DNA of 64,000 nucleotides from a virus. The DNA lies in IMG/VR virus record IMGVR_UViG_3300009514_001427. One strand, given 5' to 3'. The translations under genes were made by a program, and so were the position numbers. Of the stretch, positions 44,660 through 47,619 are shown piece by piece. Position 1 is the stretch's first letter; every line of letters starts with the position of its first letter. A model generated the notes under the pieces. The model did no database searches. It was not told the DNA's origin and worked only from the letters and a program-made list of their open reading frames with translations.

Positions 44660-44703
44660 TTTAACTGCCCCGCCAGGACTTGAACCTGGAACGTCGCATT
44701 CAA
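44660..44703 (-). pseudogene. tRNA 3'-half fragment (T-arm + acceptor 3' strand only)
   Basis: CCAGGTTCAAGTCCTGG + CGGGGCAG with no matching 5' half; lies just 3' of tRNA-Gln. Confidence 0.35.
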
Positions 44704-44774
44704 CTGCCTCGCAGGGATTTGAACCCCGACTAGAACATTCAGAGTGTCCTGTGCTACCGTTACACTACAAGGCA
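44704..44774 (-). tRNA. tRNA-Gln (anticodon CTG)
   Basis: anticodon arm GGACA-CTCTGAA-TGTTC, D-arm GTGT..GCAC, T-arm CGGGGTTCAAATCCCTG. Confidence 0.7.
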
Positions 44775-45283
44775 TTTTTCTTTTTAGCATTGCGTCCCGA
44801 GAAGGTGTCCGTTTGGCTGTTACAGTTCGGGCATAAGAGTCTTAGGTTTTTAAGCCGGTGATCATTGTTGATCCCATTTTTGTGGTCTATCACCATGACT
44901 AACGGACTATTGTTCCATTCGGGACCCAGTCCACAAATGCAGCATTGGTTTTTAAGCAGCCCCTCCTTCAGTAATCTTGCTTTCAGATTTCCACGATTAT
45001 AAGTGGAATTCTTCACCATTACTTTTGAAAGCGGCAGCTTGTTAGGCGGGGTCCGAGTTCGATCAGTGCGTCCTGCGTTGGAATTTTTTCCTTGTGGGAT
45101 ATGAGAGAAATCAATGCACTCCGCCTGTAATCTTTCTTTAAGTATACGAACGCTTCCACCATGGGAGACATTTAGCTTGCGAGTTATTTCCTTGAAACTC
45201 GCAGACTGTTTGACTGCCTTCTTGAGTTCTTCTAAGGGTATCTTCCAAATCTTGCTCCACTTCTGCATAGTCAAATCCTCCAA
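44765..45283 (-). CDS. HNH homing-endonuclease-like protein
   Basis: CCICG...IDHKNGINNDHRLKNLRLLCPNCN; N-terminal HTH-like; stop lies inside first nt of tRNA-Gln. Confidence 0.8.
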   Translation of the reverse strand: MEDLTMQKWSKIWKIPLEELKKAVKQSASFKEITRKLNVSHGGSVRILKERLQAECIDFSHIPQGKNSNAGRTDRTRTPPNKLPLSKVMVKNSTYNRGNLKARLLKEGLLKNQCCICGLGPEWNNSPLVMVIDHKNGINNDHRLKNLRLLCPNCNSQTDTFSGRNAKKKNAL

Positions 45284-45318
45284 AAAGTACTATTCGGAGG
45301 ATTTGGTAAGAACCCTTT

Positions 45319-45507
45319 TTATTTTTCAGCTGTGATACCGATTTCACCACAGGGCATTAATTCTCGTTTGACGAGCGTTCTTTGTTTGGGAGTCAACTTC
45401 GACCAAAGCTCACTTCCGGTAGCCAAAGAGTAGCCATTGATTTCAGGGTAGCTCTTAAGAACTGCCTTCGCTTCGTCTATTAGCTCTTTAAGTTTCTTAT
45501 CACTCAT
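45319..45507 (-). CDS. small hypothetical protein
   Basis: start moved to MSDKKLKEL to avoid tRNA overlap. Confidence 0.4.
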   Translation of the reverse strand: MSDKKLKELIDEAKAVLKSYPEINGYSLATGSELWSKLTPKQRTLVKRELMPCGEIGITAEK

Positions 45508-45510
45508 AAA

Positions 45511-45601
45511 CGGAGAGCAAGGGAATCGAACCCTCATGCCGGTTTAAGCCGACAACGTAGTTAGCAGCTACGCGCAACAAACCAATATTTGCCTACTCTC
45601 C
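45511..45601 (-). tRNA. tRNA-Ser (anticodon GCT), type II
   Basis: anticodon arm CGTAG-CTGCTAA-CTACG, long variable arm, arms near-identical to tRNA-Ser(GGA). Confidence 0.75.
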
Positions 45602-45751
45602 TTTTGCGCATTTGGAACAACGTAACTTGCCACGAATGCGCGTCTTTGTTATTTGATGCTTAGCACATACCGGGCTTTGGTCAGACATCCACTTTGACAA
45701 GATCAACAGTCCACTTGCCACCATTCCTAATCCCAGTATTGCTTTCTTCAT
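45593..45751 (-). CDS. small membrane/Cys protein (52 aa), not in ORF track
   Basis: MKKAILGLGMVASGLLILSKWM... ends inside tRNA 5' end. Confidence 0.3.
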   Translation of the reverse strand: MKKAILGLGMVASGLLILSKWMSDQSPVCAKHQITKTRIRGKLRCSKCAKGE

Positions 45752-46402
45752 TTACTTATCATCCTTGCGAACTTCATCGGGAATATTTGCGAAGACGCTG
45801 TTTGCGATACGCTGGAACATACCAGCGAAAAAGTCATAAATCCTCTGGAAAAGTTTCTCGATCATGTCATGGAGAAAGAACCAAAACATGCTGATCGGCC
45901 AGTACCCCATCCAGAAGGTGATGTAATCCTTGTGATTCCTTGCCAGAGGTATGATGTCAGCGACTTCGTTAATGCTTGTGCGTCGTCTCCATCCTTCTTC
46001 GGTACCCGTGGTCCAGTCGGTGTTTTGCAGTTCAGTGAGCCATTTGTCCGACAACTCAGCAGGAATGGTTTCTGTCACTTTATGTTTGATCATGAAGCGG
46101 TCACGAACGTCGTAAAACTTGTCTCTGATTTCGCCACAAATCATGCGCCACTTGGCAAGAGACCATACAACGCCTACGCCTAAATAAACTCCCACGCCAC
46201 CTGCAAACTCCCATGGATGAGCCCAGATGTAAGCGAAGACGTTGAAGTCTCCAAATAGCCACAAGACCAGAGCAAGGACAACAAGTCCTCCTGCTGCGGG
46301 TCCACCACGTTCTGCTTTAATGAAGCCGAAGACCCAGAAGACTTCCGCTACAATCAGAGCCCAAAACCAAAAAGTTCCTACAACGAAGAGTTCGAGTAAC
46401 AT
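45752..46402 (-). CDS. polytopic membrane protein
   Basis: multiple hydrophobic helices (LLELFVVGTFWFWALIVAEVFWVFGFI etc.). Confidence 0.55.
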   Translation of the reverse strand: MLLELFVVGTFWFWALIVAEVFWVFGFIKAERGGPAAGGLVVLALVLWLFGDFNVFAYIWAHPWEFAGGVGVYLGVGVVWSLAKWRMICGEIRDKFYDVRDRFMIKHKVTETIPAELSDKWLTELQNTDWTTGTEEGWRRRTSINEVADIIPLARNHKDYITFWMGYWPISMFWFFLHDMIEKLFQRIYDFFAGMFQRIANSVFANIPDEVRKDDK

Positions 46403-46644
46403 TACCTACGCCTTCCAAAAGTATTTTGTGGATTCTCTTCGCCTGGATAGAGCCAATCCTTGAAGTTTCTTTGGCTGATGCCTTTGCATCGAGCACATCT
46501 CCAGACGTATTTCTTGCCTTTCCATCGTTTCTCTTTTTTGTCGTAACGAGGAACCAACGACCAGCCTGCTGCCTCAGGATCTTCTGGCACTTCTAACGGG
46601 CAGAAGTGACATTTGGTCGATCCTAATTCGTCTTGTCTATCCAT
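46402..46644 (-). CDS. small zinc-finger-like protein
   Basis: CHFCP...CARCKG; start set at MDRQDELG so it does not run through tRNA-like element. Confidence 0.4.
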   Translation of the reverse strand: MDRQDELGSTKCHFCPLEVPEDPEAAGWSLVPRYDKKEKRWKGKKYVWRCARCKGISQRNFKDWLYPGEENPQNTFGRRR

Positions 46645-46646
46645 AA

Positions 46647-46714
46647 TGGAGCTACGGGGACTCGAACCCCGGACCTTTGCACTGCCATGGCTATGCGTTT
46701 TGAAATAAAAACTC
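46647..46714 (-). pseudogene. tRNA-like element / degenerate tRNA (good T-arm and acceptor, no convincing anticodon arm)
   Basis: CGGGGTTCGAGTCCCCG + TAGCTCCA 3' end; 5' GGAGTTT pairs 6/7; middle does not fold as D/anticodon arms. Confidence 0.3.
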
Positions 46715-47065
46715 CACTTGTGGTTCCCTAATATGTCCAAATGTTGTCAGATCAACAGATCGTATGCCAATCTGTTCACCAGATTCATCTACCAAAACCA
46801 AGTTCATTGACGGGTAGTGATAGTAAACTGCTGCCAACTTGGACAAGCGCTCGATGGATTCGTACACATCGTTGAACGAAGTCGGCCAATTCTTGCGTTC
46901 CCCATCCTTCTCCCGTTTGCCCTTCTCTTCCAGATAGGGTACGTCACGGAGTTTAGCCAATTGTTCGCCTATCAGTCTGCATTGGTCGCCTGTGCCCCGA
47001 AGCATTTCAAAGAATGTCTTGATGCCTTCTTCGGGCGTTTCGTTATTCAAAAAACATACGTCCAC
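46691..47065 (-). CDS. hypothetical protein
   Basis: 124-aa ORF. Confidence 0.45.
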   Translation of the reverse strand: MDVCFLNNETPEEGIKTFFEMLRGTGDQCRLIGEQLAKLRDVPYLEEKGKREKDGERKNWPTSFNDVYESIERLSKLAAVYYHYPSMNLVLVDESGEQIGIRSVDLTTFGHIREPQVEFLFQNA

Positions 47066-47078
47066 AGAATTCCTCCAA

Positions 47079-47149
47079 TGGAGTCACGGGGATTCGAACC
47101 CCGAACTGAACCATGCCATGGTCCTATGATCCCTTTTCACTATGACCCC
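47079..47149 (-). tRNA. tRNA-Ala (anticodon GGC)
   Basis: acceptor GGGGTCA/TGACTCC (one G-U), anticodon arm GGACC-ATGGCAT-GGTTC, T-arm CGGGGTTCGAATCCCCG. Confidence 0.65.
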
Positions 47150-47619
47150 CAATGTTTCTCACGATGACAATTCGCGCAAAGAAGATCGCATTTCTTTACT
47201 TCCTTCAGTATACGCTCCAGGCTGCAACTGCGCATCTTGTTCCAATTGGGATCTTTTTGTTTTGGGTCTCTATGGTGGAATTCAAGAGCCCCGATACACT
47301 TGTGATACCCACATTCCTGGCATTTGCCACCCTTGCTATCGACAGCACTTTTCTTATATTGTCGTAGCCTTTCAATCCTGTTCTCATTGTGACAAACCTT
47401 GCATACTGATTTACAAAACCTGCCTTGTGCTCGACCGACAAATGCGTTTTTCTGCGTAGTCCCGCAGTATTTGCACTGACGATTTTTCTTGGTTTTTGTT
47501 TTAAGATTGTACTTCTTCAGCCAATAAACTACAGTCGAGTATCCCTTTCCTAATTCATCCGCAATCTGCCGTATAGACCGATTATGGTTGATTAGCTCTT
47601 CAAGTTCTGATCTTTCCAT
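47140..47619 (-). CDS. HNH homing-endonuclease-like protein
   Basis: ALEFHHRDPKQKD...LLCANCHREKH; N-terminal HTH (RSIRQIADELGKGYSTVVYWLKKY); stop inside 5' end of tRNA-Ala. Confidence 0.8.
   Translation of the reverse strand: MERSELEELINHNRSIRQIADELGKGYSTVVYWLKKYNLKTKTKKNRQCKYCGTTQKNAFVGRAQGRFCKSVCKVCHNENRIERLRQYKKSAVDSKGGKCQECGYHKCIGALEFHHRDPKQKDPNWNKMRSCSLERILKEVKKCDLLCANCHREKHWGS

Follow-up and report, generated by a model that had tools for sequence, protein, structure and literature searches.

The tRNA array and its three HNH genes

The DNA analysed here is a stretch of 64,000 nucleotides of the virus record IMGVR_UViG_3300009514_001427 of IMG/VR (hereafter the window), in which three genes for HNH-type proteins are embedded in an array of tRNA genes. 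ARAGORN called 16 tRNA genes in the window, all on the minus strand and interspersed with protein genes between ~38.3 and 62.8 kb, and 12 of them attain the Rfam tRNA gathering score of 29 bits. Three open reading frames (ORFs) of ~155-170 amino acids (aa) each terminate within a tRNA gene, at the loci A (tRNA-Gln), B (tRNA-Ala) and C (tRNA-Pro). An initial annotation of this DNA had described HNH ORFs ending within the tRNA downstream at three loci, and the overlaps of 10 nt in A, 10 nt in B and 15 nt in C bear this out. The TAG stop codons of HNH-A and HNH-B coincide with U8-A9-G10 of the respective tRNAs. The tRNAs entered by the three ORFs are intact, all being called by ARAGORN and scoring 59.3 (Gln), 51.9 (Ala) and 65.7 bits (Pro) against the gathering score of 29. 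The ORF spans first proposed for A (45283..44765) and C (63246..62767) hold at their ends but not at their starts, where ATG codons preceded by GGAGG (45268 in HNH-A and 63231 in HNH-C) are likely the true starts rather than the upstream TTG codons.

Each HNH gene and its tRNA lie between two pieces of another tRNA gene. The 3' fragments that the initial annotation had placed at 44703..44660 in A and 46714..46647 in B are real but shorter, extending over 44665..44691 and 46647..46690, and the one in B is indeed not adjacent to its tRNA, lying beyond the ORF at 46691..47065. The accompanying statement that there is no 5' half does not hold, as a matching 5' fragment, made of the acceptor strand and the D arm, lies upstream of each HNH gene and had been overlooked. 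On the evidence given below, each locus is probably a composite mobile cassette, consisting of a leader, a free-standing HNH gene and a replacement tRNA, that sits in a resident tRNA gene of the same anticodon (Table 1).

Table 1. Window coordinates of the features at loci A, B and C, each locus in 5' to 3' order of the minus strand; resident and incoming tRNAs are assigned by comparison with contig L087
Feature	Position	Strand	Description
A5'	45332..45356	-	5' half, positions 1-25 (acceptor strand and D arm), of resident tRNA-Gln(CTG), dead; TGCCCTGTGGTGAAATCGGTATCAC
Cassette A leader	45269..45331	-	A-rich left end AGCTGAAAAATAAAAAGGGTTC, then 13-bp hairpin pairing the GGAGG ribosome-binding site
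HNH-A gene	44765..45268	-	167 aa from ATG 45268; phrog_10822, E 9e-40; stop TAG = tRNA positions 8-10
Incoming tRNA-Gln(CTG)	44704..44774	-	Intact; ARAGORN; Rfam 59.3 bits; shares 10 nt with the end of HNH-A
Cassette A right end	44692..44703	-	12-nt spacer TTGAATGCGACG; without counterpart in the empty site of L087
A3'	44665..44691	-	Resident tRNA-Gln: end of variable loop, T arm, acceptor strand, discriminator base
B5'	47678..47701	-	Decayed 5' half of resident tRNA-Ala(GGC); GGGCTCATGGCGCAGTTGGGAGC
Cassette B leader	47590..47677	-	CTCGAAAAAGAGGAGTTC...; ~30-bp hairpin over ribosome-binding site and start codon, into the first HNH-B codons
HNH-B gene	47140..47619	-	159 aa; phrog_2255, E 3e-30; N-terminal helix-turn-helix (Pfam HTH_38); stop TAG = tRNA positions 8-10
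Incoming tRNA-Ala(GGC)	47079..47149	-	Intact; ARAGORN; Rfam 51.9 bits; G3:U70 pair present
ORF124	46691..47065	-	Orphan ORF, 124 aa, between incoming tRNA-Ala and B3'
B3'	46647..46690	-	Resident tRNA-Ala(GGC), anticodon loop to 3' end
C5'	63287..63313	-	5' half, positions 1-26, of resident tRNA-Pro(GGG); CGGGATGTAGCTCAGCCTGGTAAGAGC(G)
Cassette C leader	63232..63286	-	GAAAAGAGGAATCC...; hairpin around ribosome-binding site and AUG
HNH-C gene	62767..63231	-	154 aa; phrog_2255, E 7e-38; N-terminal CxxC...CxxC module; ends 15 nt within tRNA
Incoming tRNA-Pro(GGG)	62709..62781	-	Intact; ARAGORN; Rfam 65.7 bits
C3'	62646..62688	-	Resident tRNA-Pro(GGG), anticodon loop to 3' end; followed by conserved ORF (MEQLREKIQ...)

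Comparison with uninterrupted tRNA genes

The gene for an 875-aa homologue of the Major Vault Protein (MVP) adjoins locus B and was used as the anchor for finding syntenic relatives. These are the contigs L085, L086 (of the L001 lineage) and L087, with MVP identities of 74%, 72% and 71%; an identical MVP is encoded by the source contig, a 153-kb JGI contig. The tRNA order of L085, L086 and L087 matches that of the window. In L087, tRNA-Gln(CTG) (15774-15845), tRNA-Ala(GGC) (12375-12447) and tRNA-Pro(GGG) (4020-4094) are all uninterrupted at the syntenic positions, with no HNH genes there. The L087 tRNA-Gln shares with locus A the end of the preceding ORF and the tRNA-Arg(CCT) that follows, the tRNA-Ala stands just after the MVP gene, and the tRNA-Pro is followed by a homologue of the ORF downstream of locus C. 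Removal of the cassettes in silico makes the window colinear with L087 across each tRNA and its flanks. The uninterrupted genes thus indicate that each locus is a cassette inserted in a resident tRNA gene of the same anticodon. The sites are polymorphic for presence and absence of the cassette: the three sites filled in the window are empty in L087, L086 carries a cassette at Pro(GGG) but none at Gln(CTG), and L085 is empty at Gln(CTG). The tRNA-Gln(TTG) of L001, considered as an empty site for A, was rejected as unrelated. A DNA search of loci A and B in 50,697 phage records returned short tRNA matches only, and a scan of viral contigs with the single MVP protein gave no match.

The outer fragments follow the L087 genes closely. 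A5' is identical to the L087 tRNA-Gln(CTG) at 25 of 25 positions and A3' at 26 of 27. B5' aligns to positions 2-23 of the L087 tRNA-Ala(GGC) with one substitution and one inserted base; B3' aligns with the same gene and is near-identical to a fragment in contig L168. C5' gives BLAST matches to other tRNA-Pro genes of the window and can be aligned to the L087 tRNA-Pro(GGG), and the L087 counterpart of the MEQLREKIQ... ORF that follows C3' lies after the intact tRNA-Pro. Each of the six fragments obtains a higher score with its L087 orthologue than with the intact tRNA beside it. The intact inner tRNAs are 63-74% identical to the L087 genes (67% for Gln, 63% for Ala and 74% for Pro, the last being 88% identical to the cassette tRNA of L001). 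This comparison identifies the outer halves as the resident gene and the inner tRNA as the import. Imported and resident anticodons are equal in all three loci (Gln-CTG, Ala-GGC and Pro-GGG).

Truncated covariance-model matches of the 3' pieces are weak: 13.1 bits and E 0.84 for A3' (model positions 43-71), 20.4 bits and E 2.4e-7 for B3', to the tRNA-like 3' end of the transfer-messenger RNA model, and 8.9 bits and E 0.017 for C3'. It is orthology to the L087 genes, together with the complementary acceptor strands, that identifies the fragments. The initial annotation had named low covariance scores of the fragments, together with a lack of conserved HNH-to-tRNA spacing in relatives, as findings that would speak against it; the scores are indeed poor, whereas the spacing is kept in relatives, with -10 and -15 nt recurring. 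For the T-loop motif GGTTCRANTCC, the window has 17 matches where 0.25 would be expected, 16 of them on the minus strand; the only two minus-strand motifs outside called tRNAs are the 3' fragments of A and B. The acceptor strands of A5' and A3', and those of C5' and C3', form seven of seven pairs, and artificial joins of the 5' and 3' pieces of A and of C are folded as cloverleaves by ARAGORN. A loose scan of the window for D-arm-like sequences gave, the three real 5' halves aside, matches at chance level on both strands.

The left junctions, after tRNA position 25 in A, ~23-25 in B and 26 in C, coincide with the end of the D stem. On the right side the junctions are variable, with the resident sequence resuming at position 31-32 in B and C and at ~46 in A. 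Insertion is accompanied by the loss of 5-20 nt of the resident anticodon arm. The imported tRNA is followed by 12 nt in A, ~20 nt in C and a whole orphan ORF in B. Reading the start of A3' as a TTG anticodon (TTGAA...) was rejected, as L087 shows those 12 nt to be part of the cassette and CTG to be the resident anticodon.

Insertion near the anticodon region, where the group I introns of bacterial tRNAs reside, and the frequency of endonuclease genes as intron passengers would suit a different explanation, in which the interrupted tRNAs remain functional, through a group I intron that houses the HNH gene and the inner tRNA or through joining of a split tRNA at the RNA level. This is highly improbable. 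No Rfam intron family is found at the gathering score anywhere in the window, nor at permissive E-values across loci A, B and C, and on this ground the reading was rejected. Moreover, A has lost the whole anticodon arm (~20 nt), B and C lack the 5' strand of the anticodon stem, and B5' is decayed. As each insert contains an intact tRNA of the same anticodon, splicing is unnecessary.

HNH proteins, leaders and expression

PHROG HNH families are matched by all three proteins, supporting their membership of the HNH class, and the family of HNH-A is distinct from that of HNH-B and HNH-C. The invariant columns CxxC...ALEFHH...CANCHRE are found in an alignment of 20 protein sequences, and HNH-A contains VIDHKNGINNDHRLKNLRLLCPNCN. 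The matches of the three proteins to Pfam HNH and HNH_3 are below the curated cut-off, and sequence searches of the PDB gave weak matches only, to the HNH domains of Cas9 and McrA. No GIY-YIG family occurs among their Pfam or PHROG matches. Exact-sequence look-ups of the three proteins (for HNH-C also with the alternative start) found no identical entry on record.

Each cassette opens with a leader of ~55-63 nt, in which an A-rich tract (AAAAGAGGA or AAAAATAAAAAGGG) is followed by TTC. The leaders can be aligned across cassettes with different HNH families, and that of cassette A aligns with the leaders of five other cassettes. The ribosome-binding site, the start codon or both are paired in all three leader folds, with energies of -20.4 kcal/mol (z -2.6) for A, -45.9 kcal/mol (z -8.0, with none of 200 shuffles as stable) for B and -14.5 kcal/mol (z -2.05) for C. 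The stem of the C leader is preserved in the L001 homologue by a compensatory change from A:T to G:C. Expression of the HNH genes is probably kept low by the leader hairpin and by tRNA processing. Within the loci, the minus strand yielded neither a terminator-like site nor, in a scan for sigma-70-type promoters, a promoter-like one, in keeping with transcription by read-through from the tRNA array.

Variation at the individual loci

The imported tRNA-Pro of locus C equals the L001 cassette tRNA (6182-6254) except in the anticodon arm, which is that of the resident fragment (CTGGGGGACCAGAG). This pattern suggests a patch of gene conversion between the old and the new copies. At locus B, the L168 counterpart (1-1320) comprises an HNH-B homologue (74% identical), a stub of the 5' end of the cassette tRNA, a different ORF of 160 aa and the old 3' fragment of tRNA-Ala, and L168 shares the downstream gene with the window. 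As the ORF of L168 differs from that of the window, the stretch between the HNH gene and the old fragment is an apparent hotspot of ORF swapping. ORF124, which may be cargo or a secondary insertion, has no Pfam or PHROG match and no homologue in any of the relative loci compared, including the 160-aa ORF of L168.

Several neighbouring ORF calls run across the fragments. A call of 112 aa (46402..46740, minus strand) crosses B3', and its start is most likely ATG 46644, as the L085 and L087 homologues align only from residue 14-30 on. The ORF call at 45319..45537 (minus strand) crosses tRNA-Ser(GCT) and A5', and the real gene probably begins just past the tRNA. Upstream of locus A, a small gene extends into the dead 5' half of tRNA-Gln, just as its homologue in L087 extends into the intact tRNA. 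Immediately upstream of locus C, at 63320..63856 (minus strand), lies a gene for a 178-aa GGQ-motif protein that resembles RF-1, ArfB or peptidyl-tRNA hydrolase. A PCRF/RF-1 protein adjoins the tRNA-Gln of L086 (16239-16874), and together these two indicate that ribosome-rescue genes are embedded in the tRNA array.

Recurrence in other phages and contigs

The HNH families were surveyed in 80 IMG/VR loci for the family of HNH-B and HNH-C (the B/C family) and in 35 tRNA-containing IMG/VR loci for that of HNH-A. A tRNA-Gln lies immediately upstream of the HNH-A-type gene or overlaps it downstream in 27 of the 35 loci, which are on unrelated contigs. In ~35 of the 80 B/C loci, a tRNA on the same strand starts between -40 and +30 nt from the HNH stop codon, and ORF-tRNA overlaps of -10 or -15 nt recur in these surveys. 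Members of the B/C family are found in T5-like and FelixO1-like phages and in Otagovirus; in the cultured phages FelixO1 and M5.1, the HNH ORF overlaps tRNA-Ile and tRNA-Gly.

Comparable units were found around HNH homologues in other contigs, where the initial annotation had advised looking for them. The layout of locus A is repeated in L125, with a 5' fragment, an HNH-A-like gene, a tRNA-Gln(CTG) overlapping it by 10 nt and a 3' fragment. The protein P0001 is 72% identical to HNH-C, and the order in L001 and L086 is tRNA-Pro 5' fragment, the same leader, HNH gene and tRNA-Pro(GGG), without a 3' fragment. Homologues of HNH-B, among them P0242 and P0243, lie between a tRNA-Ala 5' fragment and tRNA-Ala(GGC), in L169 and L170 at 59-63% identity. 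L100 and L169 show the order 5' fragment, HNH gene and tRNA. A variant order of 5' fragment, tRNA-Gln, HNH gene and 3' fragment occurs in L097, L099, L105 and L107, with six to seven of seven acceptor pairs. In L018 the HNH gene is followed by a tRNA 3' fragment, and the isolate Bacillus phage Bastille has an intact tRNA-Asn, an HNH gene and a tRNA-Asn 3' fragment.

This recurrence bears on whether the loci could be assembly artefacts, that is, chimeric joins between strain variants of the tRNA array. The window comes from a metagenomic contig, and repeated tRNA-like sequence can mislead assemblers. However, the same layout is seen in independent assemblies, namely L001 (ENA), L086 (NCBI), L125, L100, L169, L170 and the isolate Bastille, the HNH ORFs are intact and in frame into the tRNA, and the junctions carry unique leader sequence. 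An artefact is thus the least probable of the explanations considered.

The tRNA arrays of the relatives contain further small rearrangements. A third HNH family (DCGExDP...CANCH, 141-153 aa) lies between tRNA-Gly genes in L087 (1640-2200) and L001 (4160-4880). A 36-nt direct repeat, GTAAGACATCGCAACCAACAGTTAATACATACAAAC, and orphan 3' and 5' fragments of tRNAs flank the L087 member, and the repeat motif also follows several of the L001 tRNAs. A likely footprint of a lost cassette is present at 5143-5250 of L001, where a tRNA 5' fragment (TCCGGGTAGCTCAATGGTAGAGCGGCTCG) and the leader start AAAAGA precede an intact tRNA-Asn(GTT) with no HNH gene. In L087 (12375-12700), an ORF of 87 aa downstream of tRNA-Ala(GGC) lies between duplicate copies of the tRNA-Ala 3' end and trailer (CAGCTCCATTTGGA), a small insertion of another kind that likewise makes use of a tRNA end.

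The richness of these arrays in fragments and repeats not obviously tied to the three HNH genes, as in the L001 footprint (5143-5175) and the 87-aa ORF of L087 between duplicated tRNA-Ala 3' ends, would fit the HNH genes being mere passengers and the split tRNAs arising from mosaic or illegitimate recombination between phage tRNA arrays, with tRNA homology providing the crossover points. The further ORF swap at the B site in L168 fits as well, and the nuclease activity of the HNH proteins is itself only a prediction. However, the HNH gene stands exactly at the break in three independent loci, with the left junction always at tRNA position 23-26, and two unrelated HNH families show the same architecture. 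Nuclease-independent recombination does not predict this linkage between HNH gene and breakpoint, nor the conserved overlap of ORF and tRNA (-10 or -15 nt) or the tie of HNH-A to tRNA-Gln on unrelated contigs, and we regard passenger status as unlikely.

The empty sites in L087 and the same architecture in other contigs support the repeated mobility of an HNH-tRNA module, one of two readings offered by the initial annotation. The other, that tRNA genes serve as homing sites, is likewise supported, and the two would be two sides of one event. The fragments, taken there for footprints, are not remnants of departed elements but the two halves of a resident gene that the cassette has split.

A possible route of insertion

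The insertion of a cassette in a resident tRNA gene of the same anticodon is a history displayed by the sequences; the cleavage activity of the HNH proteins and the homing mechanism are what we infer. During a mixed infection, the HNH enzyme would attack a cassette-free genome, cutting its intact tRNA gene with the same anticodon close to where the D stem meets the anticodon stem. The left end would prime repair on the cassette donor via the short conserved D-arm homology that precedes the leader; putative donors such as L001, L169 and L100 already bear the 5' fragment ahead of the leader. Synthesis would copy the leader, the HNH gene and the tRNA, and the right end would then be captured without homology, which would explain why the left junctions are precise and the right junctions ragged. 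The resident gene is left as two dead halves flanking the cassette, and the incoming tRNA, 63-74% identical to it, would assume its function. Being divergent, the imported tRNA would maintain the supply of that tRNA and presumably escape cutting. The hairpin would restrain HNH translation. The first 10-15 nt of the incoming tRNA also encode the end of the HNH ORF, and processing of the tRNA 5' end by RNase P would remove the HNH stop codon and the last three to five codons.

Several observations weigh against this reading. B5' is decayed and pairs poorly with B3', and artificial joins at B give no ARAGORN cloverleaf. L168 has the HNH-B homologue and the old 3' fragment but no intact tRNA-Ala, so replacement of the resident tRNA is not obligatory; L168 shows that the replacement tRNA can be lost. 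L087 is a metagenome orthologue at ~71% protein identity rather than a direct ancestor. The cut site and the target specificity are deduced solely from the junction positions (left 23-26, right 31-46). If the anticodon arm is the target, the immunity of the incoming tRNA-Pro is unexplained, since its arm is that of the resident fragment. Finally, an alignment search for fragments in the 80 B/C loci was mostly negative, with only L018 and, weakly, L037 exceeding the shuffled controls. As most B/C loci show no detectable fragments, the scars are the exception, and fragments probably persist only after insertions in which the flanks of the recipient are not homologous to those of the donor.

Other genes of the window

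The MVP homologue (48132..50759, minus strand) is of the eukaryotic type (Pfam MVP_shoulder E 1.7e-23, Vault_3), with 71-74% identity to the proteins of the phage relatives L085-L087 and ~49% to Myxococcales proteins. It is unusual for a phage-like contig and may hint at the host. A protein of 308 aa (55404..56330, minus strand) resembles polynucleotide kinase/phosphatase and may repair tRNAs; the homologues in L086 and L087 carry PNK3P and AAA_33. The plus strand, which is not that of the tRNA array, carries two paralogous ORFs, 533 and 538 aa long (57166..58767 and 58774..60390), that have near-identical N- and C-terminal stretches, and a truncated third copy lies upstream (56812..57159, plus strand). 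The paralogues may be a diversified family of structural or receptor-binding genes.

Comparison with known systems

SegB of phage T4 is a free-standing GIY-YIG homing endonuclease in the T4 tRNA cluster that recognises the T-psi-C motif of tRNA genes and whose homing carries neighbouring tRNA genes along (PMC2330249). Two limits on segB expression have been proposed, a hairpin over the ribosome-binding site and the processing of tRNA-Arg between the last codon and the stop (PMC2330249). SegB homologues are statistically enriched beside tRNAs and can amplify tRNA-Tyr (PMC13096335). The genes described here resemble segB as free-standing endonuclease genes inside a phage tRNA array, with a hairpin and a tRNA overlap at the gene end. 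Unlike SegB, the proteins of the window are HNH rather than GIY-YIG proteins, and it is not the T arm but the transition from D stem to anticodon stem that the junctions indicate. The SegB papers searched contain no description of a split tRNA gene around segB or of a replacement tRNA with the same anticodon, and no mention of duplication or pseudogenes.

HNH genes in tRNA clusters are known from phage T5 (F-TflI and F-TflII) and from other phage and mycobacterial arrays, where processing of the tRNA transcript has been proposed to hold down their expression and where they are implicated in the diversity of the tRNA repertoire (PMC2330249, PMC5966550, PMC6409571). The HNH ORFs of the window resemble F-TflI and F-TflII in their location. 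The papers searched contain no cassette that splits a resident tRNA at a fixed position and supplies a replacement.

Integrase-driven islands and prophages also use tRNA genes as targets, keeping them functional by a carried copy of the displaced segment and leaving a partial tRNA repeat at the far end. The cassettes share with them a tRNA gene that is targeted and kept functional. However, such islands rely on a recombinase of the tyrosine or serine type and on an att site located at the 3' end of the tRNA. The cassettes have no integrase, interrupt the tRNA at position 23-26, bring a complete, divergent tRNA and delete part of the anticodon arm. Group I introns in the anticodon loops of bacterial tRNAs encode homing endonucleases, and SegF, SegG and MobE of T4 are examples of intronless homing. 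The likeness to both lies in an endonuclease-driven insertion in or near an essential conserved gene whose function is preserved. The cassettes differ from the introns in having no ribozyme and in preserving function by replacement rather than splicing, and from classical intronless homing in that the insertion physically breaks up its target gene. Precedents exist for endonucleases in phage tRNA clusters, for an endonuclease ORF that ends at a tRNA and for translational control by a hairpin. The full-text literature searched contains no HNH-plus-tRNA cassette that inserts at a fixed position of a resident gene with the same anticodon, keeps the two halves in place and supplies its own copy as a substitute.

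Implications for phage tRNA repertoires

A broader interpretation, put forward tentatively and with more doubt than the cassette structure itself, is that each cassette acts as a gene drive for a single tRNA species. A given HNH lineage would be specific for the gene of one such species (tRNA-Gln for HNH-A, from its 27 of 35 loci), destroy the resident copy, install a divergent allele and spread among distantly related large phages, such spread being possible because target and homology alike would come from the tRNA itself. Phage tRNA genes are now viewed as a counter-defence against host nucleases that cut tRNAs. If the gene-drive interpretation is true, such cassettes would be a main engine of tRNA repertoire turnover in phages and a route for spreading tRNA alleles resistant to host anticodon nucleases, and RNase P processing would double as a throttle via non-stop HNH mRNA.

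For annotation, the loci are a warning not to dismiss HNH ORFs that overlap tRNAs, or orphan halves of tRNAs, which are genuine components of phage tRNA arrays. The HNH proteins are candidate sequence-specific nucleases whose natural targets can be predicted from genomes, as in the family linked to tRNA-Gln, and natural pairs of filled and empty alleles are now available for direct testing. As the element brings its own spare, such a cassette can invade an essential or useful gene without splicing machinery. The loci provide a concrete route for the gain and swap of phage tRNAs, a poorly understood process, and indicate that phage tRNA sets can be overwritten by mobile elements.

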